A stretch of DNA of 28,291 nt, taken from positions 1 through 28,291 of IMG/VR virus record IMGVR_UViG_3300007985_000050; one strand, written 5' to 3'. How positions within the stretch are numbered: position 1 is the first letter of the stretch; each line of letters opens with the position of its first letter. Below are positions 1 through 28,291 of the stretch, in pieces. The translations under genes were made by a program, and so were the position numbers. The stretch comes from a virus (taxonomy: Duplodnaviria; Caudoviricetes). Below the pieces are notes generated by a model that was given only the letters and a program-made list of their open reading frames with translations, ran no database searches and was not told where the DNA came from.

Positions 1-179
1 CAGAATGGGGAAGAAAGATGAGAATTATTCTCAGGAAATGGTGCAGAATGGGGAAGAAAGATGAGAATTATTCTCAGAAAATGGTGCAGAATGGGGAAGA
101 AAGGTGAGAATTATTCTCAGAAAATGGAGCAGAATGGGGAAGAAAGGTGAGAATTATTCTCAGAAAATGGAGCAGAATG
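1..179. repeat. 43-bp tandem repeat (4 full copies + 7 bp, runs off the window start); each unit contains the palindrome TGAGAAT-T-ATTCTCA
   Basis: Units start at 1, 44, 87, 130, 173: CAGAATGGGGAAGAAAGRTGAGAATTATTCTCAGRAAATGGWG, with three variable positions. Confidence 0.97.
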
Positions 180-343
180 CAAATTCTTCACAAAATAAGT
201 AAGCCTTCCTTACCCATTCCTGTCAACCTCTTTTCATTCATCTTTAAGAATTGTTTCAGGTTGGCAGAAAAATATTATACTTCAAACTCCCCTAAAAAAA
301 GTACAAAATACTTCTAAAAAGGGGCATTTTTTCATAATCTTTA

Positions 344-372
344 TAGACAAATAAGATAAATAATATTATAGT
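344..372 (+). promoter_or_regulatory. Putative sigma70-type promoter
   Basis: TAGACA (344-349), 17-nt spacer, TATAGT (367-372), upstream of ORF 408. Spacer resembles that of the promoter at 3884. Confidence 0.6.
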
Positions 373-407
373 AAATAAATATTATAGAACAACAAAAGGA
401 GAAACAA

Positions 408-656
408 ATGAATATAACCTGGAATGATTGGGTAGAAGAAACAACTCATATTAAAAAAATGAACAAAAAAAATATAGATGGATATATTATAGAAGAAACA
501 AATGAAACCATAAATGATATTGTAATAAAAACAGACAAGTTTATAACACCAAACAAAAGAACATATATAATAAAACAAACATTTAAATACTTTAAGCCAA
601 AAAATAAAAAGGATTGGTTATTATTACCAATAGAAAAACAATGCTGGGTTGAATAG
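408..656 (+). CDS. Hypothetical protein, 82 aa
   Basis: AAAGGAG SD before ATG, promoter upstream, terminator downstream; no recognisable motif. Confidence 0.75.
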   Translation: MNITWNDWVEETTHIKKMNKKNIDGYIIEETNETINDIVIKTDKFITPNKRTYIIKQTFKYFKPKNKKDWLLLPIEKQCWVE

Positions 657-1388: not shown

Positions 1389-2351
1389 ATGATGTATTCA
1401 TTTATGACCAGCTTTTATTCTAAAAAAGCAAACAGATGGTTACCAAGTCCCAAAATAGAGAATGTCACAACAAATGGCTGGATTGGCTTTGTATGTGACA
1501 TGTTAGAAGAAGCAACCCTATCTTATCCAGAAAAAACAGTTGCACCATTAATTAGCCCAGCATTTTATAACACAACATTATACAGAAAAAATGAAAATGT
1601 TTCTGGATGGAGTTTTATTTGTTTGGACTTTGATGGTGGAGTATCATATTTGGATATCATTAACACTTATTTCTTAGAACCCAAAGAAAACATTTCATTT
1701 TTTGCTTATCATACAGCATCAAGCACCCCTGAACTGGAAAAATTTAGAATCATTATTCCTGTTGACAGAGTAATACAACCTTTGGAAATACCGGATGTAT
1801 GGCATGGTGTATATACTTTATTCAACCAACAAACTGATAAACAATGTTCTGACATGAGCAGAGGATATTATGTTCCTTGGGGATATGATATTTCAAAATT
1901 AGAAACTTTAGTATTTGGTGACAAAAACATTTATTCATTAAAAGGAAATAACAGAATAACTTTTAATATTGAAGGAAGCCCATTAAATGTGGATGGATTA
2001 CTTTTAATAAACCCCTTACCTAAATTAAGGCCTATTTCACCACCAACCAGCCAAATTACACAATTGAGATCAAAATTAACCCAAATAACAAAACAAAAAT
2101 TAGTTAAGTCTGATTGGCAAAAAGAATATTGGATGGCTGGTAATAAAATCAATGGAGGGTATCATAGAGAATTTTACAAATATCTATTAAAAATAGTTTT
2201 AAGAGCTAATTATTTTGGCATTGAATTAACAGAAAATGAATTAATAGAATTTGCCAGAGAATTGGATATAAAAGATCATGGTGGCCCTTATTATGATGAA
2301 CATGAATATAGAAGGCAAGCAAAAAATGCTCTATCAAAAGGAGCAAAATAA
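1389..2351 (+). CDS. AEP-superfamily primase/primase-polymerase with helical C-terminal domain
   Basis: LISPA..RKNENV..ICLDFDG (DxD motif I), YHTASS..KFRIIIP (motif II region), DKQCSDMSRGYYVP (motif III); AAGGA SD. Confidence 0.85.
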   Translation: MMYSFMTSFYSKKANRWLPSPKIENVTTNGWIGFVCDMLEEATLSYPEKTVAPLISPAFYNTTLYRKNENVSGWSFICLDFDGGVSYLDIINTYFLEPKENISFFAYHTASSTPELEKFRIIIPVDRVIQPLEIPDVWHGVYTLFNQQTDKQCSDMSRGYYVPWGYDISKLETLVFGDKNIYSLKGNNRITFNIEGSPLNVDGLLLINPLPKLRPISPPTSQITQLRSKLTQITKQKLVKSDWQKEYWMAGNKINGGYHREFYKYLLKIVLRANYFGIELTENELIEFARELDIKDHGGPYYDEHEYRRQAKNALSKGAK

Positions 2352-4042: not shown

Positions 4043-4438
4043 ATGTATAAAATTACTAAAAAAGAACCAATTAAAAAAGATTTTACTTACAAATATTCAA
4101 ACAGCAGATTTTTAATTGATCATAGACATATATGGGGTGACATTGGTGAAGAAATTTCATTATATTATTACAATGCTAATATTGATGATGTTGAAGAAAT
4201 AAAAACTATTGAACATTTTGAACCCATATATGTTATTAAAGGCAAAGGCATTCCCAAAGAAGAAATAAACAACAGTCATTATCATTACAATAAATTATTG
4301 GACACACTAATTTATGATGAAATGGGTAAATTTTCTATTCATAATTCAATTTTATACATATATCCCCAACATATTTTATATTTGAAATTAAAATATGGAG
4401 AATTATTTAATGAAGTTGAAGTTGAGGAAATAACATAA
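4043..4438 (+). CDS. Hypothetical protein, 131 aa
   Basis: AAAGGAG SD preceded by an ATAAATAATAATAA cassette. Confidence 0.8.
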   Translation: MYKITKKEPIKKDFTYKYSNSRFLIDHRHIWGDIGEEISLYYYNANIDDVEEIKTIEHFEPIYVIKGKGIPKEEINNSHYHYNKLLDTLIYDEMGKFSIHNSILYIYPQHILYLKLKYGELFNEVEVEEIT

Positions 4439-4462: not shown

Positions 4463-4768
4463 ATGAAAAAAACCGGAACATCCAGTCCAAAAACACTAAC
4501 TGATGAAGAAAGACTGAGAAGAAGTATCCATGCCAAAAAATTGGGTGATGCCAACAAAGGATTAAAAAGAAGTGAAGAAACAAAACAGAAAATGAGATTT
4601 GCTCATCTGGGTAATTTTCAAGATGAAGAATGGAAAGAAAAAAGAATATCTCAATTAAGAGGTAGAATTGTTTCAGAAGAAACTGTAGCAAAAAGAAAAA
4701 AGACTTTAATGGAGAAATATGGTACAACCAATATACATCAAATTAAAAAAATAAAGGAAAATTTATGA
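4463..4768 (+). CDS. NUMOD3-repeat DNA-binding protein without a nuclease domain
   Basis: KGLKRSEETKQKMRFAHLG and RGRIVSEETVAKRKKTLMEKYG resemble NUMOD3 motifs of GIY-YIG/HNH homing endonucleases; AAGGAG SD. Confidence 0.75.
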   Translation: MKKTGTSSPKTLTDEERLRRSIHAKKLGDANKGLKRSEETKQKMRFAHLGNFQDEEWKEKRISQLRGRIVSEETVAKRKKTLMEKYGTTNIHQIKKIKENL

Positions 4769-5171: not shown

Positions 5172-5708
5172 ATGATGAATTTACCTGGATTAGTACACCA
5201 GGCAGCATCTTACCAGTTGACAGATCAAGAATTGAAAATTGTGTATCAGAATACAATAGATCAATTAGGGGGCTTCAGCCATGGCAAAAGAGATGCAGCT
5301 TTGGGAGATAACAATAATTATTTTAACAGAATATTTTCCGGCAATGTTGGTGAATATGTAATAGAACAAACTACAGATTTAATAAAAATACCATCAGTAA
5401 AAAAAGCACCTGATTTTATGTTAGCCAATATACCAAACTTGTTTTTTCAAGTAAAAACACATACAGTGAAAAAATGGCCATTAAAGCCCTGTTTTCATTG
5501 GTATATTGAAACTACAGATGATGTGTTTTTTTATGAATATCATTTTGTTGTTCCTCTACTCTATGTTGAGGATATTAAAACAGTTTTTGTTCCTGGCTTT
5601 TTAGAACCAGATGATATTTATCCTGTATTGGGGGCTGGATTACCCAATAAACCCAGCAAAAAAAGATTTAATTGGAGTGACATATGTGCAAAGATAATCC
5701 CCCTATAA
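5172..5708 (+). CDS. PD-(D/E)xK restriction-endonuclease-fold protein
   Basis: GNVGEYVIE ... APDFML ... FQVKT matches the E..PD..(Q/E)xK catalytic pattern; GGAG SD (start 5172 or 5175). Confidence 0.65.
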   Translation: MMNLPGLVHQAASYQLTDQELKIVYQNTIDQLGGFSHGKRDAALGDNNNYFNRIFSGNVGEYVIEQTTDLIKIPSVKKAPDFMLANIPNLFFQVKTHTVKKWPLKPCFHWYIETTDDVFFYEYHFVVPLLYVEDIKTVFVPGFLEPDDIYPVLGAGLPNKPSKKRFNWSDICAKIIPL

Positions 5709-7009: not shown

Positions 7010-7020
7010 TTTCCCCTCAT
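6985..7020 (-). terminator. Terminator hairpin at the convergence of + and - strand operons
   Basis: ATGAGGGGGAA-GTAA-TTTCCCCTCAT (6995-7020); followed by TTTAGCTTTT on the - strand; contains both stop codons. Confidence 0.75.
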
Positions 7021-9944
7021 AAATTATCTATAATTCTTTTCCATTCAGCAAAGCTCATACCCAATCCCTGTTTTGTAGAACTTTGACCTCTTGAATCAGG
7101 AAGACTTACCCATTTTTTAGATATTTTATCCATCAATTGTTCTTTTGAAATTTTACCAGCTCTATAATCACTTAATCCAACTTCTTCTAACATTGTAATA
7201 AACAATTTATCTTGAACATCAGCAGTAAATTTAGTAGTATTTGGATCAAAACCAGCTTTTTCAACATATTCTCTTAATGTACCTTCAATAAATTGCCATC
7301 TTCCAACAGCAGAACTTGGCAACATTCTACCTGCACCATTATCATATCTGTTATTTGGGTCCTTCTTTAAATCATCTTGATAATTATAAACTTCAGATAT
7401 TGTCATTTCAGTTAATGGTTTGTTTCTTAATTCTGGTCTAATTGCAGCTCTGTGTCTACCATAACCAATTTCAATATCATAATCACTTGTAGCACCAGGT
7501 TGTCTTCTATATGTATTTGTAGTACCTTCTGCCATTGATATTGCATCAATTAATCTAAGTTCACCTGTACTTACACCCTTCAAAGCATCTGACCTTTCAC
7601 CTGTTCCTCTTGTTCCTCTTGTTCCTCTTCTGGCTCTTCTTCTCTGTTCTGTGTATTCTCTGGATTTAGCTACTTGAGCAGCCAAATAATCATTACCCTT
7701 TAATATGTTGAGTGTATCTTCAAAACTTACTCTTATTATGTTGGGAACACCATTACCATTTTCATCAATGAATATTGCTTCTTCACCAGCTAAAACAGAA
7801 GTGCCATCAGCATTGGTAATAATCATACCCATTCCAGATTCATCACTTTGAAATCTTAAATTTTCTCTTAATTGACCCCATTCTTCATCAGTAAATTCAC
7901 CCATTCTGGCTTCTATTTCTGGTCTAATTTTATCCATTAATAATAAAGTGCTGTCTTTGTTGTTTAAAGCATTGTTTAAGAGATTATAATCTGTTGGGTT
8001 GCTGTTAAATTGAGTTTTAGCTATTGCCACATTATTATATTTTGTAATTAACACATTATTATTTAAATCTTCAACACTTTTTGTGAGTAATGTTTCAAAA
8101 TTATTAATATTACCTCTTGAAGCAACTATTGCACCATTTACTATGGATTCAGCTAAAGCATAAGATTGTTCTGCATAAGCAACATTATCTCTGCTAACAC
8201 TAATTACACCCATAATATCTGTTAAATTAGCAGCCACAGTTTTAATTCTATCTTCTTTGTTAATACCCAATAATGAAACACCACTTTTAATTGAATCTTC
8301 TGTAGCAGCTTGACTATTGGCAATAACTGTTTGAATATTTTGACCACTTGCCATTAATGCTGCTAATGGAGGCATACCTCTTTCTTCTAATTGTCTCCAT
8401 ATAATAGTTTGAACTTTGTCTCTGTCATAAGCTCCTTCAATGTCACCCAATAATTGATTAATACCAGTTTTTAGAAAAGCAAATGCTTGTTCTGGATTTT
8501 CTCTGGAAGCAATTTGAAATGTTTGTATTAAGGGATCTAATTCCTCACCTGTAAATAATCTTGGAGAAATACCAGTGCTTAATAGATTACCTTGAACAAA
8601 GAAAAAGTTAGCTCTATTTATTGGTGTATCATCTATACCCATTTTACCCAATGCTTCAACTATAACATCAGCACCATCTGGACTATTTAATCTCTTTAGT
8701 GTTTCACTGGCTTGTGTTCTTAATAACAGTTTGGCTTTTTCTATACCTTCAGGCATTAAATCAGGATATTTGGTTGTGTTAATTGTGTCATTAATAAAAC
8801 TATCCCATTCAGTAAAAGGAGTACTCAACAATGTGACAAAATTAGTACCAATAGCTTTAGCAATATCCATATCCTGTTTAGCAATTTTATAGTCTTCTGG
8901 GTCAGGATATCTGTCCTGTAATGCTTGGTCTAATTGGGCATCATCAACTCTTGCCTTACCAAAAAGACTTAATTCCTGTCTATATATTTCCAGTTCTCTA
9001 TCCATTTCAGCCATTTCTCTTTTTTCAATGGCTTCTCTGTTTTTATCTAATCTATCAATATATTGTACTAATTCTATTCTTTCTTCAAGAGTATAATTAT
9101 TTAAAATATCACCTGCAGGAGGACTAATAATATTTCTTTTTAATTCATCAACTGAATTATTTGGTAGTGCATTTTCAAAATATAATAGTGCAAAGTCAGC
9201 TTTGACTGCTTCAAATTGTAAATCTCTCTTTCTAATATCAGCTTCCTGTTGGGTGATTAATCCATTTGACACTTGATCCTGTATCATTTGATTACCCAAT
9301 TCAATTTTATTTAATACTTCCTGTTTACCATCAGCACTGGTAATTGCTGTGGGATTGGAAATTAAAACATCAATTGATCTTAAATTATCATTAAAACTTA
9401 AATTGAATTCATCAGCAGCTAATTTCATTTTCTTTTGATAAGCAGCATTAAAAAATTGATTTGTTTTACTACCAATCAATCTTTCAGAATAAGCAGAAAT
9501 TCTTTGGGCAGTGGCACTTTGGGCACCTTCTGTCCAACTTTGGCTGGCTAAATTTGTTCTTTCTTCAAAACTACTCAACCATTCCATTGGGTCAGCATCC
9601 AGAGGAAGAGTTAAAAACTCTCTTTCTGCTTGATTAAAATATTCATCAATTTCTCTCTGCTTTTGTAATAGAAATACTTGTTCACCAGCAGCATTATAAG
9701 CTCTTTGAGCTGCTGTGGGTATGGCAGTATTACCAACTTGTGTTTCTGAACCTTCCTGATCAATAGCACCCTGTTCTGTTGCTTTGGCTACTTGAGCATC
9801 AACAAATTTATCTGCTAATGCACTAGCCATTCCTGAAAATAAATTGGCAGCACCTGTGCTGACTGTAAATCCACCCAAACTTAATTGGGGATTACCACCA
9901 GCAACCCTGTTAACATCCTGAGCATTTCCTCTTACATTTACCAT
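7017..9944 (-). CDS. Internal virion (ejection) protein with a C-terminal lambda-lysozyme-like muramidase/lytic transglycosylase
   Basis: Long helical body and position after the small ejection protein; C-terminal LIDAISMAEGT..LTEMTISEV..SSAVGRWQFIEGTL..FTADVQD..KWVSLP. Confidence 0.85.
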   Translation of the reverse strand: MVNVRGNAQDVNRVAGGNPQLSLGGFTVSTGAANLFSGMASALADKFVDAQVAKATEQGAIDQEGSETQVGNTAIPTAAQRAYNAAGEQVFLLQKQREIDEYFNQAEREFLTLPLDADPMEWLSSFEERTNLASQSWTEGAQSATAQRISAYSERLIGSKTNQFFNAAYQKKMKLAADEFNLSFNDNLRSIDVLISNPTAITSADGKQEVLNKIELGNQMIQDQVSNGLITQQEADIRKRDLQFEAVKADFALLYFENALPNNSVDELKRNIISPPAGDILNNYTLEERIELVQYIDRLDKNREAIEKREMAEMDRELEIYRQELSLFGKARVDDAQLDQALQDRYPDPEDYKIAKQDMDIAKAIGTNFVTLLSTPFTEWDSFINDTINTTKYPDLMPEGIEKAKLLLRTQASETLKRLNSPDGADVIVEALGKMGIDDTPINRANFFFVQGNLLSTGISPRLFTGEELDPLIQTFQIASRENPEQAFAFLKTGINQLLGDIEGAYDRDKVQTIIWRQLEERGMPPLAALMASGQNIQTVIANSQAATEDSIKSGVSLLGINKEDRIKTVAANLTDIMGVISVSRDNVAYAEQSYALAESIVNGAIVASRGNINNFETLLTKSVEDLNNNVLITKYNNVAIAKTQFNSNPTDYNLLNNALNNKDSTLLLMDKIRPEIEARMGEFTDEEWGQLRENLRFQSDESGMGMIITNADGTSVLAGEEAIFIDENGNGVPNIIRVSFEDTLNILKGNDYLAAQVAKSREYTEQRRRARRGTRGTRGTGERSDALKGVSTGELRLIDAISMAEGTTNTYRRQPGATSDYDIEIGYGRHRAAIRPELRNKPLTEMTISEVYNYQDDLKKDPNNRYDNGAGRMLPSSAVGRWQFIEGTLREYVEKAGFDPNTTKFTADVQDKLFITMLEEVGLSDYRAGKISKEQLMDKISKKWVSLPDSRGQSSTKQGLGMSFAEWKRIIDNL

Positions 9945-9953
9945 TTTATATCC

Positions 9954-10370
9954 TTATGAAGCAAAATAACCTTCAGCTAATTTTAGCCCAGTGTTTAATG
10001 CAGTTCCAGCAGCTTGAGCATAACCTTGGTTGAGTGCATTTTGACCTTCTGCTTTTTTCATATCAGCATTTAATCTGGCATTTAATTGATCAACATAATC
10101 TTCATTAGCAAATTGAGCAGCAGTTGAATCAAATACACCTTGAAAACTTTCAACAGTTGCACCACTAACACCAGCTCTTGCTCTTTGACTGGCAATAACT
10201 CTCTGTCTCTGTTTTGACCTATCTTCCTGTCTTAAAGCAGCTTCTGTTTTAATAGTTTGTGCTTGAGCATTGGCAATTTTTTGTTGTGTTTTGGCAGCAC
10301 TTATTTGGCTCATTACTGAAAAGCCAGCACTTGCAACACTTAACACACCTAATAATATTGGAGCACTCAT
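9954..10370 (-). CDS. Small internal virion (ejection) protein, T7 gp14-like
   Basis: Hydrophobic N-terminus, Ala/Gln-rich helix, QRARAGVSG motif; start set at ATG 10370 (ATGA overlap, GAGG SD). Confidence 0.8.
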   Translation of the reverse strand: MSAPILLGVLSVASAGFSVMSQISAAKTQQKIANAQAQTIKTEAALRQEDRSKQRQRVIASQRARAGVSGATVESFQGVFDSTAAQFANEDYVDQLNARLNADMKKAEGQNALNQGYAQAAGTALNTGLKLAEGYFAS

Positions 10371-12852: not shown

Positions 12853-13436
12853 TAATGAGTGTACCTTGATTGAATTAATCTGGAGTTTGATGTTGAAATA
12901 ACAGTTGGAGGAGGATTACTTTTCATATCTAATAGTTTGGCTTTAGCATCTAATCTCTGATACATACCCATTAACAAATTTAATTTACCCACATCTTCAG
13001 TTAATGCTATAACTATTTGAGTTGCTAATTTAGCAGCAAGAGCATTGGCAAAATAAGCTGGTAAATCTGTTGTTGTCACATTTTTTAAATATTTTACTTT
13101 GATGTTGTTTACATTGGCACATATTCTATTGTTTGCTTCATAAGCCCAATCAAGTGGATGACCATATTCATCTACAACTGCTATTACTCTTAAATATGTG
13201 GAATTTAATTGGAATTGATATTCAAAATCAGGATTGCCTGGTACTTCTACTAAAGGACTTAAATTACTCCATTCAACAGCAAAGTTCCAGGGATACTCAG
13301 CCAACATGCTTAATTTAACTGTATCAAATACTGTTGATATAACACCAGCTTCTTCTGATGCATCTTCAAAACTTGATATTGTGTCAACTATACCACAATG
13401 AATGAGTGCTATATTCGAAATTTCTATATCATTCAT
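12852..13436 (-). CDS. Tail adaptor / tail tubular protein A
   Basis: DIEISNIAL, YPWNFA, LPAYFANALAAKLA; start moved to ATG 13436 (AAGGAG SD). Confidence 0.9.
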   Translation of the reverse strand: MNDIEISNIALIHCGIVDTISSFEDASEEAGVISTVFDTVKLSMLAEYPWNFAVEWSNLSPLVEVPGNPDFEYQFQLNSTYLRVIAVVDEYGHPLDWAYEANNRICANVNNIKVKYLKNVTTTDLPAYFANALAAKLATQIVIALTEDVGKLNLLMGMYQRLDAKAKLLDMKSNPPPTVISTSNSRLIQSRYTH

Positions 13437-13970: not shown

Positions 13971-14792
13971 TTAGTTTGTGATGTCTGCATAAAATACAGC
14001 ATCAGGTAGAATTGTACATGCACCAACATGCATTTCACCCAATACTTGAGTTGTGTTTCTTTCTGGGATTCTTTCAACCATTAGCTTCATAGTATTGCCA
14101 AGAGCAACACCAACTGATTTCTTGTACCAAGCATAGTTTCTGTGAGTACCAGCAGAAGTAACAGGTAATAGTGAGTTATCAGTGTAAATTAATGTGAAAC
14201 CCATAAAGTTGGATACAACACCATCTTGAAGAGCACCTTTTTCTAAGTAGTCTTTTGAAGTTAGAGTTGTGTCATTTAAAAGGTCTTCTAAACCAGATTC
14301 ACCAATTAACATAAATCTGTTTTCATAACCCATTGGAACTTGAGCAGCCATTAATGATTTGTTGAAAGCAATCATACCAGCTTTGTTTAGGGTATTTGAC
14401 ATTGAAACAGCAGTTGGGTTAGCATTTAAGCCATCATCAACTATAATTTCATCCCATTTCCTACCAACAGCCATCATAATTGATTGGGTATATTCTCTTC
14501 GAAGATCCAAGTTTGTTCTTAGGCTATCAAAATCTTCAACCCATTCAGGTGCTTCAATTCTCTTTAGCACACAATCAACAGTTGAATGACCAACATTCAT
14601 TGGTGATAGTGTAGCATTTCTGCTTCTATTAACTGTTGCTTCACCTTCACCAATTTTGTGGAATTTGTGAGTTTGAGCATTTGCTCGAGCAACTCTAACA
14701 CCACTCATTAAGGTTGTTTGTTTTCTTTGTAGCTCATGTTGAGCTTCCATATTCCACTCTACAATAAGAGCATTATCTACATTTGTTGACAT
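13971..14792 (-). CDS. Major capsid protein (HK97 fold, BPP-1/T7-supergroup type), 273 aa
   Basis: MSTNVDNAL..QHELQ..LMSGVR, AVGRKWDEII, LQDGVVSNFMGFTLI; follows the scaffold; start at ATG 14792 (AGGGAG SD). Confidence 0.92.
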   Translation of the reverse strand: MSTNVDNALIVEWNMEAQHELQRKQTTLMSGVRVARANAQTHKFHKIGEGEATVNRSRNATLSPMNVGHSTVDCVLKRIEAPEWVEDFDSLRTNLDLRREYTQSIMMAVGRKWDEIIVDDGLNANPTAVSMSNTLNKAGMIAFNKSLMAAQVPMGYENRFMLIGESGLEDLLNDTTLTSKDYLEKGALQDGVVSNFMGFTLIYTDNSLLPVTSAGTHRNYAWYKKSVGVALGNTMKLMVERIPERNTTQVLGEMHVGACTILPDAVFYADITN

Positions 14793-15016: not shown

Positions 15017-15043
15017 TATCTTTTAGCTAAATCATATTACTAT

Positions 15044-15940: not shown

Positions 15941-15952
15941 TTAGTTTTCCCC

Positions 15953-16198: not shown

Positions 16199-16205
16199 TT
16201 TCTTT

Positions 16206-17786: not shown

Positions 17787-17794
17787 TTTTTACC

Positions 17795-17977
17795 TTAAAA
17801 TATTGCTGGGCCTAATGCATTTTGTGATGATCCTAATCCAGCTTTAAATACTCTACCAGCTCTTAATGCTTCAGCAAACTGGTTTTGAGCATTTTGTTCT
17901 TTTTTCTTTGTTAAGTCCACTTCAGGAGTAGTTGCTACTGGAGCAGGTGCTGCTTTTGGTTTTGATGGTTTGCTCAT
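17795..17977 (-). CDS. Small pre-portal virion protein (T7 gp6.7/7.3-like position)
   Basis: MSKPSKPKAAPAP Lys/Pro N-terminus; AAGGA SD. Confidence 0.7.
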   Translation of the reverse strand: MSKPSKPKAAPAPVATTPEVDLTKKKEQNAQNQFAEALRAGRVFKAGLGSSQNALGPAIF

Positions 17978-17986
17978 AATAATTCC

Positions 17987-18190
17987 TTAAAATCCTGGAC
18001 TTAAATATTCATCAGATGTTGCTACACCAAGTGCTCCACCTCTGGTTTTTAAAGTAGCCAATACACCTTGTCTCTTTTTGGCTGCTAATTGTTCTTCTGC
18101 TGCTGCTGAACTTTCTTCTTTAGCTCTTTCAGCTTTAGCTTCTGCTTCTGAAGGTACTCTTGGTACTTTGGGTGATTTAAACATACTCAT
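17987..18190 (-). CDS. Small pre-portal virion protein
   Basis: MSMFKSPKVP..AKKRQGVLATLKT..GALG; AGGGA SD. Confidence 0.72.
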   Translation of the reverse strand: MSMFKSPKVPRVPSEAEAKAERAKEESSAAAEEQLAAKKRQGVLATLKTRGGALGVATSDEYLSPGF

Positions 18191-18242: not shown

Positions 18243-21200
18243 ATGTCAAAATATACTATGTCTAATAGGCTTGATGCCAAACAATATGCACAGGATTTGT
18301 TAAACAAACCATCAACAAGTGATTATTTAGGTAGTGTTTGGGATCAAGCAGCAACAGAAACTCCATGGAAAAATATTGAATATTTAAAGGACAGGGGATA
18401 TTCCACAGAATCAATATTGCCTGAAGACTTTTATAAATCAGAAGATTATAGGCCTGGACAGGAATATAGAAGAGGTATGACTAAAGGTCAACAGAGATTA
18501 TTAGCAGAAGACTATGATGAAACTGTTAAAAGAGCAGAAATAATGAGAAAATACCCAGACTTTTATGGTAGAGGGTTAGTTGAATTTGGTGTTGGTGCTG
18601 CTGCTCATATGGCTGATCCTATTAATTTAGGTGTTGGTGTTGCTCTTGGATTAGTGCCAGGTATTGGTTGGGCCAGTTTGGGTGCAAGACTTGGATTAGC
18701 AGGAAGTACTGCTCTTGGAACTATTGGTAGAGCTGCTGTTGCTGGTGCTGTTGAAGGTGTAGTTGGTAGTATTTTAGTTGAACCCATAATATTTGCTGGT
18801 CAAGAAAAAATGCAGAGAGATTATACTCTATTCAATTCCCTACAAAATGTCATGTTTGGTGCTGTGGGTGGTGGTATTATTGGTGGTGGTGTGGGTGGTA
18901 TTGGCTATGCTCTTGGGGGATTTGGCAATAGATTAGCTGCTTCAAATAAAATACAACCAAATGATACACCATTATATAATGGATATAAACCCAAAGATGT
19001 TGCCCAAAATGTATCAAATGCCATATTAGCAATTGAAACAAATCAAATAAACAATTTTACTCCAGTTCAAGGAGGCAAACCTCAATTAATTCAGTTAAGT
19101 GATAAAAATTTAGTTGATGAATTATTTACAACTGAATTTAACCAATTACAAAATATTAATCAACCAACTGGTCAAATGACTTATGCAAGTGAGTATGATC
19201 TTTGGTTAAACAAGTATGAAAGATTGGGATATACAAATGAATTAAATGCTGGTAAAATTAAATTAAATGAATTAGTCAGTGATGAAAACAAATTAATTTA
19301 TCCAACTCCAGAAATTGAAAGTTTAATAAGACAATTTGTTGATGATAAAGTTCAAGCAAAAGTTAAAACAGGTTCTGAAATTAATGATCTTGGATTACCT
19401 GAAGACACATTTAAAACTGTTGATTCAATAATATTTAGAGGACCTCCAGGAACAGGTAAAAGTTCAATTGGTGATATTTTGGTTGCCAAATATGGTGATA
19501 ACACAAAGTTTTTACCACCAGAAGACATAACACCAGAAAATATTGAAAAACTATTGAGTGGTGGTTCAGTACCAAAATATTTAATAATTGATGAATTTGA
19601 CAAATTAAGCAAAAAACAAATGGATTCATTAAATCAAGTTTTGGGTTTTTACAAAGGCAAAACAAAGTTTGTATTTACAACCAATGCTGATCTAAAAAAA
19701 TTAGGACCTGAATACAGCCAAATAATTAATTCATCTGAAGATGTAGTTATGGATGGATATACCAAAGAACAAAAAGCTGCTTATGCTGTATCATTAGCTA
19801 AAGAAAGTGGTATGATGGGCAAACCCATTGATGAACTACTTAAAATAGCAGAAATGAAAGATGAGTTGGGTAATCCAATTAGTTTAAGAGGTATTAAAAC
19901 CAATCTTGAAAGTTTATTAGAACAAAAAGGCAAAAAGAACATAGTAAAATATGATCAGGGAGCCAGTTTGTTTGGATTTGATGATGCCCCAGTTAAAAAG
20001 CCCATTGAAGAAAGTATTGCTGAATTACCCCTAAAAGAAGACCAAAGTAAAACACTTATTGAATTTATGGAAAATGCTGGTGATAAAAGCATATTAATAC
20101 TTCAAGGACCCAACAAAGATCTAAAAAATAAGGTGCAAAAAGCAATTCAAGATGGCACATTTGATTATGACAAAGTAAAAATTGGGGGTCAGGAAGTTAT
20201 TTCAACATTTGATAGAAATACACTTGCTTCAATACAAACAGCACTTAAAAATCCCTACCAAGGTGAAGGGTATGGATGGCTTATTCAAATAGAAGGCACT
20301 TCAACAAACATAGCCCAATTAGCAAAATACAATAATCAATTGGAAAAAATAGTTAATGCAAGTCCAACAAGAGCAAGAATAGTAATAAATGTTGATAATG
20401 TTAAAATGGATAAACAAATATTAGCTTCCATTTATGACAGAGCTAAAACTATTACACTTGATAAAAAACAAACTGGTAAGGGTTATGTTCCAAACACAAC
20501 AAGAAGAGGTGTACCAAATTCCAAATTAAGAACAAGAAGTGCTGTTGCATCAGAAGTATTAAATGATGATGCACTAAAAACAACATTAATAAATGCTCAA
20601 GCTAATCCAGAACTACAACCTGTAGCACAAAGTATTATTGAACAAATGAAACAATTTTCAGATGATCCACTTTTGGATGTTCAACCTGAATTAATTCCAA
20701 ATGTAGCTATAACAAAGGAAATGGTTGAAAATTTAAATCAAAAAATAAATGGTGTATTTGATGGAACACTTGATCCAGAAAAAGTAAGTATTGATGCAGC
20801 CTTATTACAACAAAAATTAATGGCTGATATTGGTACTGCACTAAACAATTTAATTGATGAATTACAACCACAAACCAATGGTGATTTGTTAGCTGTATAT
20901 GATAAAGTAGCCAGCCAATTTCCAGATATGAGTACAAAAATTACCCAAAGTTCTGCTTATCAAGATGTATTAGCAAGAGCTAATTTGGAAGGAAAACAAA
21001 CTAAACCCACATTGGATGAATTAATTACTGTTAAACCCATAGATGATGTACCAAATGTATTAGCACAAAAAGCAGAAGATTCAAGAATAAGATTAAATAT
21101 GATTAGACAAAAGCTAATTAATGACAAACAATTACTTAAAAACTTTGATGATGCTGTGGAATTAGCACCCATTGAAGCACAACTAAAAGATGTAGATGAA

Positions 21201-21272
21201 ACAATAAATTTGATGAATGATCCTGACTTTATAAGAGCAGCAGCAAATGCAATCAAATGTTTGAGGACTTAA
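18243..21272 (+). CDS. Internal virion (ejection) protein with inserted tandem clamp-loader-like AAA+ modules
   Basis: Gly/Ala hydrophobic N-terminal region (ADPINL..), C-terminal AAANAIKCLRT abutting the MxxC start of the next ejection gene; GPPGTGKS (aa 400-407), LIIDEFD, FVFTTN. Confidence 0.8.
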   Translation: MSKYTMSNRLDAKQYAQDLLNKPSTSDYLGSVWDQAATETPWKNIEYLKDRGYSTESILPEDFYKSEDYRPGQEYRRGMTKGQQRLLAEDYDETVKRAEIMRKYPDFYGRGLVEFGVGAAAHMADPINLGVGVALGLVPGIGWASLGARLGLAGSTALGTIGRAAVAGAVEGVVGSILVEPIIFAGQEKMQRDYTLFNSLQNVMFGAVGGGIIGGGVGGIGYALGGFGNRLAASNKIQPNDTPLYNGYKPKDVAQNVSNAILAIETNQINNFTPVQGGKPQLIQLSDKNLVDELFTTEFNQLQNINQPTGQMTYASEYDLWLNKYERLGYTNELNAGKIKLNELVSDENKLIYPTPEIESLIRQFVDDKVQAKVKTGSEINDLGLPEDTFKTVDSIIFRGPPGTGKSSIGDILVAKYGDNTKFLPPEDITPENIEKLLSGGSVPKYLIIDEFDKLSKKQMDSLNQVLGFYKGKTKFVFTTNADLKKLGPEYSQIINSSEDVVMDGYTKEQKAAYAVSLAKESGMMGKPIDELLKIAEMKDELGNPISLRGIKTNLESLLEQKGKKNIVKYDQGASLFGFDDAPVKKPIEESIAELPLKEDQSKTLIEFMENAGDKSILILQGPNKDLKNKVQKAIQDGTFDYDKVKIGGQEVISTFDRNTLASIQTALKNPYQGEGYGWLIQIEGTSTNIAQLAKYNNQLEKIVNASPTRARIVINVDNVKMDKQILASIYDRAKTITLDKKQTGKGYVPNTTRRGVPNSKLRTRSAVASEVLNDDALKTTLINAQANPELQPVAQSIIEQMKQFSDDPLLDVQPELIPNVAITKEMVENLNQKINGVFDGTLDPEKVSIDAALLQQKLMADIGTALNNLIDELQPQTNGDLLAVYDKVASQFPDMSTKITQSSAYQDVLARANLEGKQTKPTLDELITVKPIDDVPNVLAQKAEDSRIRLNMIRQKLINDKQLLKNFDDAVELAPIEAQLKDVDETINLMNDPDFIRAAANAIKCLRT

Positions 21273-21273
21273 A

Positions 21274-23805
21274 ATGGATGTATGCTATATTAATATAAAA
21301 GATGCCTTTAAAGATGCTGGCTTAACTGAAAAGGGGTTAAGTGAAAAGAAAGCAGAAGCACTTTATAATAAAATTAAAAAAGTAGTTGATTTAGAAAAAA
21401 CAGATCCAAGATGGGTTAATTCAACAGTTGATCAAAGTGTTCAAAGAATATTGCAGGAACAAATAGATGACTTATTGAGAGAGAAAACTTTCTTTCAAAA
21501 TGAACTTATATTAAATGAATCTGCATATACAAAAATGATTGATTATGTGGAAAAAAGAGTTGAAGAAAGATTAGCTGCTGGTGAAAGAGAAAGCAGAACA
21601 TTGGGTTTTACTAAAAAATCCAGAAAAAGACTTTATTCAGATTCAGTTAAAGATTATTTAACCAATGCTGATCTTCAACAACAAATAAGAGTTAAAGACT
21701 TTTTTAATAAAGTTGGTATTATTATTGAAAATAATCCAAAAGGATATAAAAAAGTACAAAGTGGACAATTTGATGAACAATTATTGGAAATAATGAAGGG
21801 TAATCCAGTTGAAGTTGATTCTGATGTAAAACAATTTGGATTACAACTTAAAAAAATAAATGATGAAATAAAAGCCAGGAGACAGGATTTAGGTCTTGAT
21901 ATAGATGATAGTCCTTTTGTTATCAGTCAAAGTAAATTAATGAATTGGAGTGGTGCAAGAAGTTTAGCAGATAATTTTAGTGAATATAAAAAGATTATTA
22001 GAAACAAATTTGATCAACATGTTGATAAAGTGAGTACTTTAAAAAGACTTAAACTTTATCCAGAAGAAGGTGAAACTTGGGATGATTTATGGGATCAATT
22101 TATATCTTCAACTGCTGAAAATGCTTGGTATGGAAAAAATGAAGCTTGGAATAGTTATGGTAAATCAGGCAGTAAATTTGATGCTTTTACCAAAAGAATT
22201 GGTATGGGTGAAAGAATAATACAATTTAAAAGTTCTGCTGATGAAATTGCTTATATGAAGGGTGTCAATCCAGTTAGTGACAGAATTGATAAAATAGCAA
22301 AACAATTTGGTGGTAATGCCCAAACTACTTTCTTTACCAAATATATTGAGGAATTAGAACACCAAGGTAAAACATTTGGCAGCATATATGAATTGGGAAC
22401 AAAAGGCAGAAGTACCTTTGACATGTTTAGAACTTATATTAGAGACAAATATAAATTAGATGATGATGGTGTTGCTGAACAATTTAAAAATGATCAAAAT
22501 GCTTATTTAGATTCCATGCTCAACATTATTACAGGTAGAAACAATGTTCCAACTAATTTTACTGTATCAAATATAGTTAGTGAAATAAAAGCATTTAACA
22601 ATTTAGCTTTCTTGGGTGGTGCTGCTGTATCCAGTATTACTGATGTGCCATCAGTTATGGCTGAATTAAGTAGACAGGGAATTAATCCACTAAAAGCTAT
22701 TGATGGAGTATTGCAAAACACCAGCAAAGAAGTCAGAGAATTATTTGGTGAATATGCTGTTGCTGTTCAAGATAATTCATGGAATAGATTTGGTGATACA
22801 ACAAGTGGAACTGGATTATTTAGTTCACTACAAACTCCTTTCTTTAAAGCAACACTTTTAACTGGTTGGACAAATATGAATACCCATGCTTATATTAGAA
22901 CATTGGGAAAACATTTGGGTGATTTAAAAGGTAAAAGTTGGGATGAGTTGGGTAATGATATAAAATGGCAAATGGGTAGAAGTGATATTGGTCCTGAAGA
23001 TTGGGATATTTTAAGATCAAATATGATTAAAAATATTAACAATAAAGATTATATGGCACCTGAACCAGATTTTGAAAAATTAACTGATCCAAAACTACAA
23101 ATGGTTAATAGAAAATTGGAGAATTATTTACTTGATTCCAGTCAAAGAGCTATTCCTCAAACTGCATTAAGACAAAGAGCTATGATTGAATTTGAAAGTC
23201 CTGGATCAGTTGTTGGCAGTTTAAGTAGATTATTCTTTCAATTTAAAACATTTCCTCTTAAAATGAGTCAAACACTACAATTTGATTTAGAAAATCCATA
23301 TGGAGCAAGTAAATTAAAAGCACTTACTATCAGCATAGTTGGTATGACTGCTCTTGGTGTATTAGCTCAACAAGCTAAAGGATTAATTTCAGGTAGAGGT
23401 TATAAACCTGTAGAGGAATATACTGCTGAAGATTGGAGAAGTGCTTTAGCTCAAGGTGGTGCTTTGGGTATAGTTGGTGATTTTACACTTAATGCTTTTG
23501 GTGAACCCAGCAGATTTGGTGGACAGACCAGCCTTGGTTCAGTGATGGGACCCACATTTGGTAGAGTTGAAGGGCTTTACAATTTAGCACAAAAGTCAGC
23601 ACAGGGAGAAACAACTGCCAATCAATTAATTAATATTGGTAAAAGTTATGTTCCTGGTAGTAATATATGGTGGGGTCAATATGCCATAAATGCTGGTGTT
23701 GTTAATCAATTACATGAATTAGCTAATCCAGGATATATTAGAAGAATGGAACAAAAAGCCAGAGAGGAAGGTAGAATTAATAGTGACCTTCTTGGATTGC
23801 AATAA
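21274..23805 (+). CDS. Large internal virion (ejection) protein, epsilon15/BPP-1-like
   Basis: LGGAAVSSITD, FFQFKTFP, ALAQGGALGIVGDF, VMGPTFG, PGSNIWW, LHELANPGYIRRMEQ. Confidence 0.88.
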   Translation: MDVCYINIKDAFKDAGLTEKGLSEKKAEALYNKIKKVVDLEKTDPRWVNSTVDQSVQRILQEQIDDLLREKTFFQNELILNESAYTKMIDYVEKRVEERLAAGERESRTLGFTKKSRKRLYSDSVKDYLTNADLQQQIRVKDFFNKVGIIIENNPKGYKKVQSGQFDEQLLEIMKGNPVEVDSDVKQFGLQLKKINDEIKARRQDLGLDIDDSPFVISQSKLMNWSGARSLADNFSEYKKIIRNKFDQHVDKVSTLKRLKLYPEEGETWDDLWDQFISSTAENAWYGKNEAWNSYGKSGSKFDAFTKRIGMGERIIQFKSSADEIAYMKGVNPVSDRIDKIAKQFGGNAQTTFFTKYIEELEHQGKTFGSIYELGTKGRSTFDMFRTYIRDKYKLDDDGVAEQFKNDQNAYLDSMLNIITGRNNVPTNFTVSNIVSEIKAFNNLAFLGGAAVSSITDVPSVMAELSRQGINPLKAIDGVLQNTSKEVRELFGEYAVAVQDNSWNRFGDTTSGTGLFSSLQTPFFKATLLTGWTNMNTHAYIRTLGKHLGDLKGKSWDELGNDIKWQMGRSDIGPEDWDILRSNMIKNINNKDYMAPEPDFEKLTDPKLQMVNRKLENYLLDSSQRAIPQTALRQRAMIEFESPGSVVGSLSRLFFQFKTFPLKMSQTLQFDLENPYGASKLKALTISIVGMTALGVLAQQAKGLISGRGYKPVEEYTAEDWRSALAQGGALGIVGDFTLNAFGEPSRFGGQTSLGSVMGPTFGRVEGLYNLAQKSAQGETTANQLINIGKSYVPGSNIWWGQYAINAGVVNQLHELANPGYIRRMEQKAREEGRINSDLLGLQ

Positions 23806-23813
23806 ATAAGATT

Positions 23814-25430
23814 ATGAGTTATACAGATGAAATAAGAAGAGTAAGTTATGTAGGTAATGGCAGTACAAGTGTATTCACTGTGCCATTTACTGCTACCTCC
23901 ATAAATGATATAAGTGTATATATAAACAACCAGCTTCAAATTCAAGGGGGTGGGGCAGATTATACAGTTCAATTTAATGGAGATCTAATAGATACAATAA
24001 CAACAACCAACAATGTTGCCAATAACAGTATAATTGTTATTCAAAGTAATGTACAGCCATCAAGATTAACTGAATTTACTAATAATACAGTTATAAGATC
24101 CAGTGCTTTTAATACTGAATTAAATAGAGTTTATTCCATAATAGATGAATTAAAAGAAAGATTGGATAGAAAATTTGGTGTAAGTGATGGTGCAATATTA
24201 AGTGCTTCAACTGTATTTCCCAGCCCAAATTCTGGATTTGTAATTGGTTGGAATGCCAATAATCAATTAGTAAATGTTCAAGCAGCATCAGCAGTAAGTC
24301 AATTACCAAATATTGGTTCTGGTGATGCTGGTAAATTTGTGTCAGTAAATTTAGGTGAAACTGGTTATGAACTTGCTACATTGGGTGTTGATACAAATGG
24401 CAACCTTACTATTGAAAATAATACAGATCCATTCATAATTATCAGGGAATCAACAAATGATGTTAATTCATATTTTAGATTAAAAAATAATGATGATACT
24501 ATAAGCCAAATAAGTCATATAGGAACAGGTGAAGCTATTATTGAAATAGACCCTATAAGTTTAGATCAAAGTGCTGGTAATGTTAGATTTTTTAAGAACT
24601 CCAATTCAGGTGGTCCAAAAAGTGTATCTTTATATAATGTATCAGGAACTGTTGACAGTGAAATAGGAATAAGTGGAGTTAACACTTATTTTAATACTAC
24701 TGGTGGTAATTTTGGTATTGGATCATCAACTCCACAAAGCAGTTTAGATATTAGCAATAGAACAGATGGTATTTTAATTCCAAATGGTACTACAGCACAA
24801 GCAATAACCAGTGCCAATAGTGGTGTAATTAGATACAACTCATCAAAACAATATAATGAAGTATACAATCCAACTACTTTATCATATCACAGTATGGATA
24901 GTTGGACATTAATTAATTCAGTGGATTTTGCTACTACTTCATTATCAGTATGGGAAACAACTGGATTAGATAAATTTGATGAAATAAGAATAGTAATGTT
25001 GAATGTTGGTCCTGATTCAGGCACTGCTAACATCTCATTTAATATTCAATCAAATAACAGCACTTGGATAACAACCAGTTCTTATTCAACATTTTTTGCT
25101 ACATTTAATAATTCAACAACAACCACCCAATTTAACAATACTCAAGCTGTTTCTATTCCATTAAATTTAACTTCATTACCAATAGTTAGTAATTATAATG
25201 GTGAACTTAATATTTTTAATAGACCAAAATTTGTATCATCTGGAACTTTAACAGCTGGGTTTGGTAAATTTTATTATTTAATAAGTGGGTCTTGGGTTCA
25301 TGGTTCTGGTGGATTTAGAATTACAGGAATTACCAATTTTATTTCTGGATTAAGGTTAACACTGAGCAGCAGCACATTTAGAAATGATGGTAATATATAT
25401 GTTTATGGCAAAACATTACCAAAAGGATAA
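23814..25430 (+). CDS. Tail fibre 1 with T7 gp17-like N-terminal anchor
   Basis: YVGNGSTSVFTVPF..DISVY..DYTV..FNTELNRV; fibre motif GNFGIGSSTPQSSLDI..GILIPNGTTAQ..GVIRYN. Confidence 0.88.
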   Translation: MSYTDEIRRVSYVGNGSTSVFTVPFTATSINDISVYINNQLQIQGGGADYTVQFNGDLIDTITTTNNVANNSIIVIQSNVQPSRLTEFTNNTVIRSSAFNTELNRVYSIIDELKERLDRKFGVSDGAILSASTVFPSPNSGFVIGWNANNQLVNVQAASAVSQLPNIGSGDAGKFVSVNLGETGYELATLGVDTNGNLTIENNTDPFIIIRESTNDVNSYFRLKNNDDTISQISHIGTGEAIIEIDPISLDQSAGNVRFFKNSNSGGPKSVSLYNVSGTVDSEIGISGVNTYFNTTGGNFGIGSSTPQSSLDISNRTDGILIPNGTTAQAITSANSGVIRYNSSKQYNEVYNPTTLSYHSMDSWTLINSVDFATTSLSVWETTGLDKFDEIRIVMLNVGPDSGTANISFNIQSNNSTWITTSSYSTFFATFNNSTTTTQFNNTQAVSIPLNLTSLPIVSNYNGELNIFNRPKFVSSGTLTAGFGKFYYLISGSWVHGSGGFRITGITNFISGLRLTLSSSTFRNDGNIYVYGKTLPKG

Positions 25431-25433
25431 TTT

Positions 25434-27212
25434 ATGAGTTATACAGAACAAATTAGAAGAGTTGAATATATTGCTAATGGAATCACCAGTGATTTTGTGG
25501 TAAGTTTTGATTGTACAAATAAAAATGATATTTCTGTTTATGTAGATAGTGTTCAACAAATAGTTGATGTTAATTTTTCTGTCACATTTGATGTTAATGG
25601 GTTAGCTGATTATATTACTCTTTTTATTACACCATCAAATAATTCAATAGTTATTATTCAATCAAATGTTTTAATTAATAGAGCAACTGATTTTAATAAT
25701 AATACAAGAATTAAAAGTTCTGCATTAAGTGTTGAATTTGATAGATTATACAGTTTAATTGATGAATTAAAAGAAAGATTAGATAAAAAAGTTGGGTATA
25801 ATGAAGCAATTATTACTTCTGCAAGTAATATAATGCCAAATGCTCAAGAAGGATTTGTTATTGGGTGGGAAAATAATCAATTAGTTAATTTACCATCAAC
25901 ACTTGTAAGTGCAGCTATTCAATTACCAAATATTGGTGGTAGTGATTCAAGTAAAGTAATATCTGTTAATTTAGCTTCAAATGGTTATGAATTATCAACT
26001 TTAACAGACAAATATACTACTTCAGCATGGGTTAGTTCAAGATTTACAACATCAGCATATGTTAGTGCTAATTTTGGTGCTATTGGAAGAAGTATTAATT
26101 TTGTCACACCAGAACAATTTGGTGCAGTTGGTGATTCAACTGTTGATGATACTACTGCTGTTGTTGCTGCTTTAGCTACTGGTAAGATTGTAATATTAAA
26201 TGGATTATACAGAACTACCAGCACAATATCTGTTGAATTAAGTGCAGGAAGAAGAAGTTTAAGTATTTTTGGTGCTGGCAAACAACAAAGTGGATTTTAT
26301 ATTACCCATTCTGCTGTGGGTTTTGATATTACCATGAAAGATGTTTTTGTACCAATTGGACAATTTGCTCAAGATATTTGTTTAAGAGATTTCAGCATTG
26401 TATCAAATGGAGCTCATGATGCAGGTGTTGGTATTAAAGTAAGTGGGCAACCAGGTATTGGTAGCAGTGACCCAACATTTAGAATTGATAATGTTGCCAT
26501 AAGACCAAATTCAACATCACATTATTTTGCCAAAGGTATGCAATTAAATAATATTAGAAATGGTACAATCAGCAATTGTGATGTTTTTGGATATTGGAAT
26601 TTTTATAATGGTACTGGTATTGAATTAGCTGCTGTTGGCAGTGCTGCTCCAATTCATATTCATATAACAGATTGTAATATATCAAATTGGGATTCTGGTA
26701 TTAGATTATTGCCAGCTAATGTTGGTCAAACAACCAGTGATATACAGGGTGTTCATATAAGAGGCAATAATATTATTGCTGTTAACAGAGGAATTTATGC
26801 TGAAACAACAGACAAACAAAGTGATCAAATAATGATAAATGAAAATCACTGTAATTTTAGAGTATCTGGTATACAAATTGAAGATTGGAAAAGAGTATTT
26901 GTTGATAATAATTTCTTATTAGCAAATGGTACAGTAAGTGCCAGCACTGCTCATGGTATATTGTTAATAACAAACAGTGTTAATTCAATATATGGGTTTG
27001 TAAGTAATAATTGTGTGGATTTTAGCAGCCCAACAAATGTAAGTTCAGATGAAAGAGGAATAAGAGTCATTCAAGTTGGTGGTGCTGCAAGAGTATTAGT
27101 AAATAACAATATGATTATTACAGCAGATATAGCATATGAATTACCTGCTGATAATATATTAACAACAAGTGCTGTATCAGTAATTGGTGGAATCAATAAT
27201 TATTCAGCTTAA
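25434..27212 (+). CDS. Tail spike 2: anchor domain plus right-handed beta-helix (putative polysaccharide depolymerase)
   Basis: Paralogous anchor; FVTPEQFGAVGDSTVDDTTAV pectate-lyase-3-type start; repeated ISNC/ITDCNI/IRGNNI/VDNN strands. Confidence 0.88.
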   Translation: MSYTEQIRRVEYIANGITSDFVVSFDCTNKNDISVYVDSVQQIVDVNFSVTFDVNGLADYITLFITPSNNSIVIIQSNVLINRATDFNNNTRIKSSALSVEFDRLYSLIDELKERLDKKVGYNEAIITSASNIMPNAQEGFVIGWENNQLVNLPSTLVSAAIQLPNIGGSDSSKVISVNLASNGYELSTLTDKYTTSAWVSSRFTTSAYVSANFGAIGRSINFVTPEQFGAVGDSTVDDTTAVVAALATGKIVILNGLYRTTSTISVELSAGRRSLSIFGAGKQQSGFYITHSAVGFDITMKDVFVPIGQFAQDICLRDFSIVSNGAHDAGVGIKVSGQPGIGSSDPTFRIDNVAIRPNSTSHYFAKGMQLNNIRNGTISNCDVFGYWNFYNGTGIELAAVGSAAPIHIHITDCNISNWDSGIRLLPANVGQTTSDIQGVHIRGNNIIAVNRGIYAETTDKQSDQIMINENHCNFRVSGIQIEDWKRVFVDNNFLLANGTVSASTAHGILLITNSVNSIYGFVSNNCVDFSSPTNVSSDERGIRVIQVGGAARVLVNNNMIITADIAYELPADNILTTSAVSVIGGINNYSA

Positions 27213-27221
27213 GGAATTTAA

Positions 27222-28291
27222 ATGAGTTATACAGATGAAAATACAAAAATACAGTATATCAGTGTAAGTGGTCAAACAGCATACACAGTTCCATTTACTG
27301 TTTATCAAACTTCAGACATTCAAGTTTGGAAAAACAGTTCTGAGTTGATTGATTTAACTGATTATAATGATGTTTTAAATGTTGATAATGAAATAAGTTC
27401 AATTACACTTGTTGTTCCTGCAACTACAGGTGATGTTATTACCATATTAAGAAATACTGAAGTTAACAGAGCAACAAATTTTACAAACAATATTAAAATA
27501 TCAACCAATTCATTAAACACTGAATTTAACAGAATATATAGAAAATTAGATGAACTTGGTGATAAACAAAGTCTCAAGTTTGCTGATTATTCAACTGCTT
27601 CAGCAGCTTTAATATTGCCAGAACCTCAATCAAACAAATGGTTAGTTTGGAATTCAGCCCAAACTGCCTTAGTTAACAGTACTATAACTTTATCTGATTT
27701 AGGTGATTTAAGTGGCAATTTGCAGGAAGATTATGAAGAATACAGTGCTTTTTTAAGTTCACAAACTGTCACACACATAATCAATTTAAATGATGAATAC
27801 ACAGAATTAAATTTAGCATTAACTTCAACTGGAACTTTTTATATAAATGAAGTAAGTGCTGTTGGACAAAGTTTTATTGATTTATTTCAAAACAGCCAAT
27901 ATGCTCAATTAAGTGCTATAAACACTTTTACAAACCCCATAATCAGCACTGCACCCAATAATTTAGCAACAAATTCTATGCCAATAACAATTGGTGAAAA
28001 TGGAAACAGAGGTATTACTGGTATTGGTACTACTCAATTGGGTTTTATAGTTGCTAATGAAATTGCTGCTGCTGTTGGTAGTGCTGGTACAACATTATCA
28101 AACACATATTCCATAGTGACCAGAGAAAAAGGTGATGCAAGATACATGCTAATTGGTGGGTCTGCTGGTGCTGTATTTACAGAAACTTCAGCTGATGCAA
28201 AATACTGGCAAATAACCAAATTAAGCAGTTTAAGTCAATTAAACAATACTCCAGGATATGTTTCAGCAGGTCAATTAACTGCATATGCTAC
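27222..28291 (+). CDS. Tail fibre 3 with anchor domain, truncated by the window end (not in the ORF track)
   Basis: AAGGA SD; MSYTDENTKIQY..YTVPFTVYQTSDIQV..RATNFTNN..LNTEFNRIY..LPEPQSNKWLVWN; frame stays open to the end. Confidence 0.88.
   Translation, partial: MSYTDENTKIQYISVSGQTAYTVPFTVYQTSDIQVWKNSSELIDLTDYNDVLNVDNEISSITLVVPATTGDVITILRNTEVNRATNFTNNIKISTNSLNTEFNRIYRKLDELGDKQSLKFADYSTASAALILPEPQSNKWLVWNSAQTALVNSTITLSDLGDLSGNLQEDYEEYSAFLSSQTVTHIINLNDEYTELNLALTSTGTFYINEVSAVGQSFIDLFQNSQYAQLSAINTFTNPIISTAPNNLATNSMPITIGENGNRGITGIGTTQLGFIVANEIAAAVGSAGTTLSNTYSIVTREKGDARYMLIGGSAGAVFTETSADAKYWQITKLSSLSQLNNTPGYVSAGQLTAYA

Follow-up and report, generated by a model that had tools for sequence, protein, structure and literature searches.

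The sequence analysed here (the window) is the whole 28,291-nucleotide stretch, positions 1..28291, of IMG/VR virus record IMGVR_UViG_3300007985_000050, and its counts and gene content mark it as a fragment of an HTVC010P-like podophage genome (a loose group) with a genome-wide purge of the dinucleotide CG. Only 6 CG steps were counted where about 720 were expected from base composition, giving an observed/expected ratio of 0.008, which is the lowest measured in this analysis and at least 35-fold under the ratios of known relatives. The cause is probably selection against CG, and the selective agent is tentatively proposed to be a host restriction-like defence that recognises CG itself in unprotected phage DNA (probability roughly 0.4).

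Extent of the CG depletion and the surviving sites

In the initial annotation, which was made by eye, CG was placed only at 1792, 4474 and 5339 (each in CCGG) and at 13416, 14500 and 14686 (each in TCGA), with two of the TCGA sites inside longer palindromes. The exact count returned the same coordinates and contexts and no further site, and both palindromes read as written; the estimate that several hundred CG should be present also held. The GC dinucleotide, described there as common, has a ratio of 1.19, and all other dinucleotides reach at least 0.79 of expectation. Because C and G separated by one to eight nucleotides (C-N(k)-G, k=1..8) occur at 0.69-1.26 of expectation, the loss is confined to the adjacent pair.

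Synonymous codons of 28 genes were shuffled 200 times, which gave 228 +/- 11 CG (minimum 199) against the 6 observed. C|G at codon junctions numbered 2 (233 expected), arginine was encoded by CGN in 2 of 351 codons, GCG and ACG codons were absent, and 2.2 kb of non-coding DNA held 0 CG where 50 were expected. Codon bias was ruled out as the cause by these shuffles and by the junction and non-coding losses, as the initial annotation had argued when it noted the absence of CG from CGN and NCG codons, junctions and non-coding DNA and proposed a codon-preserving shuffle. The word has been lost far beyond codon and composition nulls and through silent changes, which is the pattern by which restriction-site avoidance is recognised. 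All ten strand-collapsed NCGN contexts are affected, so that what has been lost is a 2-bp core, where an orthodox type II enzyme would have a site of 4-8 bp. Since five of these contexts (ACGA, ACGC, ACGG, CCGA and GCGA) retain 0 sites of about 477 expected, the target was taken to be the core CG itself, as opposed to several palindromic words.

An assembly artefact was ruled out by the recurrence of the same sites in separately assembled records: record L180 holds exactly the same six CG and no extra across 15.3 kb, and records L002 and L003 hold the 3 and 5 sites that they overlap, respectively, and none besides. These records are 99.94-99.97% identical to the window and are therefore silent on long-term conservation of the sites. 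Comparison with related phages, which had been suggested in the initial annotation, showed that the loss is not lineage-wide, as the CG ratio was 0.30-0.87 in all 99 of the distant-relative loci (many of them redundant) and 0.31 in HTVC010P. Bacterial loci with related phage genes had ratios of at least 0.22, and among them no CG-free locus turned up.

Near-complete CG loss is nevertheless not unique to this phage. CrAss-like and Flavobacterium phages were measured across 78-98 kb each (phi14:2 across 36 kb) with transfer RNAs found by ARAGORN masked, and gave CG ratios of 0.019 (DAC17), 0.022 (crAss001), 0.065 (FpV4-1.1), 0.10 (cr85), 0.22 (cr111) and 0.42 (phi14:2). CCGG was spared in crAss001 (18/65, 6.8-fold, P 8e-11), cr85 (39/326, 2.3-fold) and cr111 (57/683, 1.7-fold), and was not spared in DAC17 (3/57), FpV4-1.1 (0/106) or phi14:2 (1/350). 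Among these six phages an excess of TCGA was found in cr111 only, where YCGR made up 347 of 683 sites against an expected share of 0.34. The flank bias of DAC17 is the opposite (YCGR 4/57), with ACGT and GCGC in excess. As the bias differs between CG-poor phages, host-specific enzymes fit it better than a physical property of DNA.

The three CCGG sites of the window lie at 1791..1794, in a Pro codon (CCG) of a primase-like gene (1389-2351); at 4473..4476, on a Thr-Gly codon junction of a homing-endonuclease-like gene (4463-4768); and at 5338..5341, on a Ser-Gly junction of a nuclease-like gene (5175-5708). The TCGA site at 13415..13418 falls in a Ser codon (TCG) of a tail/adaptor gene (12852-13436, minus strand). 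The other two are at the centre of a 10-bp palindrome at 14496..14505, in the CGA codon of the nearly invariant capsid residue R104, and of a 12-bp palindrome at 14681..14692, in the CGA codon of capsid R42. Both arginine codons are conserved. A silent change to AGA would create the under-used word CTTAG at R104 and CTAG at R42, and since the sole silent escape yields an avoided word in each case, these two sites need no shield.

Survivor contexts were tested against the silent mutational opportunities with reading frames fixed, and the resulting P values, which are post hoc and based on n=6, were ~0.0004 for all six being palindromic, ~0.002 for all six being YCGR and ~0.006 for occupation of at most two of ten context classes. 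The bias to CCGG and TCGA is beyond chance, and a YCGR rule describes the six sites equally well. Both words are spared in relative terms only, with 3 CCGG left of about 30 expected and 3 TCGA of about 66; YCGR as a whole is down to 6 of about 185 (97% lost), and CCGA/TCGG to 0 of 89. Shielding of CCGG and TCGA by other methylation is plausible. No signal of unusually stable hairpins was found at the survivors (1 of 24 folds below the 5th percentile). Two of the six survivors sit in perfect palindromes of at least 10 bp, and a span of 1.3 kb contains all three TCGA (P ~0.006, by hand and post hoc).

Other words are purged as well. The only CTAG of the window (9823..9826; about 70 expected) marks a second, ordinary-looking purged site, and GTWAC occurs 3 times (1439, 11522, 14158) against about 30 expected, with GTSAC common (27). 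The depletion of these two words indicates that site-directed selection acts on the genome. CTTAG/CTAAG number 13 against 35 expected. CTAG is also purged in three of the five CG-poor phages compared (crAss001, cr111 and FpV4-1.1). Many distant relatives (L008, L041, L052, L054 and others) have zero GATC and have kept CG, and one locus labelled Rickettsiales (L118) combines a GC ratio of 2.06 with CG at 0.28 and neither CCGG nor GCGC.

Probable selection against CG and its possible agents

Mutation and selection were compared in a simulation in which proteins were held fixed and either hypermutation of CpG (the CG dinucleotide) or a direct penalty S per CG was applied. Unlimited CpG deamination left 97-144 of the 351 Arg codons as CGN, against 2 observed, because the decay products of these codons change the amino acid. 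With S=4-6, 0-9 CG remained in each codon class, and since the three observed classes fall to 2, 2 and 2 (junction, XCG and Arg CGN), this penalty was favoured over hypermutation. The persistence of CGN that is expected under CpG-methylation decay was not seen, and CGN accounts for 14-54% of Arg codons in 48 related loci and for 15 of 230 in HTVC010P. In the model, the scaled selection coefficient would be about 4-6 per CG, a cost comparable to that of a restriction site under complete avoidance. Taken over all variants, selection is judged a probable cause of the loss. The proposal of strong selection against a 2-bp target is thus supported by the shuffles, the Arg CGN usage of relatives and the simulation.

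Deamination, which the initial annotation had listed among the candidates, was not upheld as the main cause, since CGN Arg codons could not be removed in the model and relatives rich in CG have an even stronger TG/CA excess. That excess is present in the window (TG/CA 1.33, TA 0.79), is small after correction, falling to 1.12 once the empty CG cell is set aside, and is exceeded in the closest relative clade (12 of 48 loci of at least 9 kb; CG 0.56-0.76), where TG/AG is 1.43-1.68 against 1.33 in the window. It was therefore read as probably a lineage trait rather than a methylation scar, and is not diagnostic of deamination. A symmetric excess of T before G and A after C (2.1 and 2.3) is higher than in crAss-like phages (0.4-1.5) and, with both measures taken jointly, above all six relatives with low GC at third codon positions. 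Because it also exceeds both models, some decay in addition to selection is possible.

Under the proposed host defence, some host strains would cut or block incoming DNA at unmodified CG, their own DNA being marked, and a lytic phage without a methylase of its own would escape by silent rewriting of its genome. CCGG and perhaps TCGA would be hit less, owing either to marking by a methylase common among hosts or to an aversion of the agent to their flanks, and this is the weakest step. Near-complete elimination of sites is, in the available text of PMC6286503, typical of non-temperate phages facing type II systems.

Several points weigh against such a defence. No enzyme was found that could be the CG-directed agent. 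No restriction enzyme is known to have a 2-bp CG site. Survivors number only six and were analysed post hoc, and the sparing of CCGG is absent in DAC17, FpV4-1.1 and phi14:2. At least 5.3 kb of the phage genome, and perhaps far more, lies outside the window. Mutational load, through which selection could act if the phage population were very large, is not part of the simulation, and the excess of T before G and A after C is reproduced by neither simple model. A host that is itself CG-free is conceivable. In its available part, PMC11282364 regards defence systems as an unlikely origin of the CpG content of phages and states that phage CpG tends to follow the host. In Supplementary Table S1 of that paper, as far as it was accessible, the observed/expected CpG of M. 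penetrans (1.14) contradicts the paper's own text, and the column may be mislabelled; because of this conflict the table values were not used. A literature search, which scarcely covered subscription journals, returned no paper on CG-free phages or on a CG-specific restriction agent.

Searches for C5 and N4/N6 methylases found none in the 28,291-bp fragment, in any of five closest relatives tested (0/5) or in the five complete CG-poor records (crAss001, DAC17, cr85, cr111 and FpV4-1.1; 0/5), and PADLOC and NCBIfam searches gave no defence or methylase matches. These results bear on the suggestion in the initial annotation of a CpG methyltransferase coupled to methyl-directed restriction or deamination: deamination as the main cause was not supported, no methylase was seen in the fragment, and the YCGR survivors agree with the blindness of McrBC. 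Methyl-directed restriction is a somewhat unlikely explanation. In it, phage DNA methylated at CG in some hosts would be cleaved in other hosts by type IV enzymes resembling McrBC, McrA or Mrr, so that CG would be selected against. McrBC targets RmC and McrA (Y>R)mCG in the available texts of PMC12707154 and PMC3874153, and an RmC rule would spare exactly YCGR, the context of all six survivors and the one in excess in cr111. YCGR is, however, itself far from neutral, CCGA/TCGG being lost altogether, the flank bias of DAC17 is opposite, and, in the portion of PMC9465063 that was available, the only CpG C5 methylases described from prokaryotes are those of Mollicutes.

An unlikely alternative is a CG-methylating and CG-poor host, in which decay of 5-methylcytosine would clear silent CG and mutational-load selection would clear the CGN Arg codons. 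The TG/CA and TA values, the joint excess of T before G and A after C over the low-GC relatives and the CG ratios of 0.28-0.33 reached by low-GC alphaproteobacterial loci with the capsid family would agree with it. Against it stand the corrected TG/CA value, the higher TG/AG of the CG-richer closest clade and the CGN codons left by mutation alone. Moreover, M. agalactiae, with CpG methylase genes, has CG at 0.46-0.5 (available text of PMC9465063), Mycoplasma phage P1 was measured at 0.36, and no measured bacterial locus was under 0.22.

Self-avoidance, by which an early phage nuclease would cut CG in host DNA and spare a phage without the site, is improbable. The candidate nuclease is a 177-aa orphan encoded at 5175..5708 (plus strand) in the early replication cluster, with a PD-(D/E)xK-like motif recognised by eye. 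Its Atlas neighbours are unnamed phage proteins (0.95), the nearest named clusters being T4 endonuclease IV (0.92), a cytosine-directed host-degradation nuclease, and a Bsp6I-like one (0.90). The Atlas link is a lead only, as families are mixed at 0.92, and one surviving CG lies inside the gene itself. No homologue was found for comparison in sequence searches, the protein had no match in the CG-poor crAss-like loci examined, and a single-sequence structure model was unusable (pLDDT 29.5). An Atlas search with the product of 4043-4438 returned nothing.

It is quite improbable that several ordinary type II enzymes, each with a site containing CG, jointly removed nearly all CG. The purges of CTAG and GTWAC would suit it, as would the loss of single contexts in HTVC010P (ACGG 0, CCGG 0, GCGC 1) at its higher overall ratio, but it fits badly because what survives are CCGG and TCGA, both classical palindromic targets, and non-palindromic contexts stand at zero; most of the non-palindromic NCGN contexts are not known to be recognised by a 4-base cutter. 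A constraint on RNA or translation (a CG-cutting RNase or poor CGN decoding) is very improbable, since the loss is just as complete at codon junctions and in non-coding DNA as it is for CGN codons, both CGA codons lie in the capsid gene and the survivors are not in unusually stable hairpins, even if strand symmetry cannot exclude it, CG being self-complementary.

Phage identity, genome layout and likely host

The record is linear, with 32% GC, a CheckV completeness of 56% and no terminase match. A metagenome contig of the same phage (Ga0210043_1000733, 33,561 bp) has coordinates reaching about 5.3 kb beyond the right end of the window; searches for this right end did not recover it. Among IMG/VR relatives with a completeness rating of at least 90%, the closest two measure 30-31 kb, so the missing part may be smaller than CheckV implies. 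The left part holds the primase-like gene, a DUF3987 helicase, small nucleases and a resolvase, followed by capsid, portal, tail-tube and internal virion genes and then tail fibres. The virion set of HTVC010P-type podophages is present (PF19821 capsid, T7-like portal, tail tube A/B and internal virion proteins), and the phage was placed by its major capsid protein (PF19821; 13971..14792, minus strand). As protein identity to HTVC010P-type phages is just 22-30% over the capsid, portal, tail-tube and internal virion families, and 22-29% to the cultured relatives, no genus-level claim is made. The closest capsid proteins are 76% and 57% identical, and DNA scans for close relatives recovered the same phage again or loci at 21-30% identity.

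A Shine-Dalgarno motif stands upstream of 13 of 20 long genes (0.65), against 0-18% in five Bacteroidota phages, and of 401 genomes sampled from the alphaproteobacterial class to which genome G003 belongs, 81 carry the capsid family. Together these suggest a proteobacterial host, and the host is probably not a member of the Bacteroidota. Capsid homologues also occur among named Magnetovibrio and Ferrovibrio proteins, none of them close. An alternative genetic code was rejected, as table 11 already yields a complete set of genes, to which table 4 brings no necessary addition. The capsid family is present in 11 of 12 small genomes of one order (L129-L147; G003, G006-G015), three with an in-frame TGA at the same place, which possibly reflects a domesticated, gene-transfer-agent-like element or else a changed code.

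The virion genes form two divergently transcribed arms, 7017-18190 (minus strand) and 18243-28291 (plus strand), whose starts adjoin at about 18200; in HTVC010P they form a single run. Inserted into the internal virion protein at 18243-21272 (plus strand), at roughly residues 392-490, is an AAA+ / clamp-loader-like domain, which is odd for an injected protein, and a second degenerate copy after it was seen by eye. Ten 9-bp ATGYTGACA repeats in both orientations surround an AT-rich stretch at 1014-1272, just before the primase-like gene, and this region is likely a replication origin. A 43-bp tandem repeat (4.2 copies) occupies the left contig end (1-179), and a 15/30-bp repeat array lies at 902-986.

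Comparison with known systems

The CG-poor crAss-like and Flavobacterium phages share with the window a low CG ratio (0.019-0.22), few CGN codons and the lack of a detected methylase. They differ in that their virion genes are unrelated, their hosts belong to the Bacteroidota, Shine-Dalgarno sites are nearly absent (0-0.18 of genes vs 0.65) and TG/CA is not in excess, and the window is lower still in CG. The window extends the CG purge to a lineage unrelated to these phages, with the lowest value measured here. It is possible, although doubtful, that more than one bacterial phylum has an undescribed two-base CG restriction-like defence, blocked by marks at CCGG and related sites, and that unrelated phages (the window podophage and several crAss-like phages) independently rewrote their genomes to escape it. 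If true, this would be a prokaryotic counterpart of CpG sensing, and methylome mapping would gain a useful reagent in a CG-specific nuclease that methylation blocks. To purge a two-letter word from a whole genome, a selective agent would have to be much less specific than any known restriction enzyme. The published view, in the accessible part of PMC11282364, is that phage CpG is host-like and not defence-driven. Since cultured pairs (crAss001, DAC17) show the same loss, the cause of CG-lacking phages is directly testable.

The HTVC010P-type podophages share the capsid, portal, tail-tube and internal virion families with the window, and differ in that HTVC010P retains CG at 0.31 and has kept CTAG. 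Type IV restriction (McrBC, McrA YmCGR, Mrr) has 2-4 base targets that include methylated CG, and the YCGR survivors fit it; it depends, however, on a source of CG methylation, none of which was found, and YCGR would stay intact if McrBC were the only enzyme at work. Mollicutes, from which the CG-specific methylases M.MpeI and M.SssI come, likewise show a genome-wide CG deficit in an AT-rich prokaryotic genome. The deficit of the window is about 50-fold deeper than that of M. agalactiae (available text of PMC9465063), its fragment has no C5 methylase and uses the standard genetic code, and mutation alone does not fit it. The closest parallel in form is restriction-site avoidance in non-temperate double-stranded DNA phages, for which the available text of PMC6286503 describes the same near-complete silent removal of a short word, and the window shows its ordinary form at CTAG and GTWAC. 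At CG the word is only 2 bp long, several hundred sites have been removed, no cognate enzyme is known and the survivors are classical type II palindromes. The window is thus best regarded as a variant of restriction-site avoidance, the cause of which would be new if confirmed.

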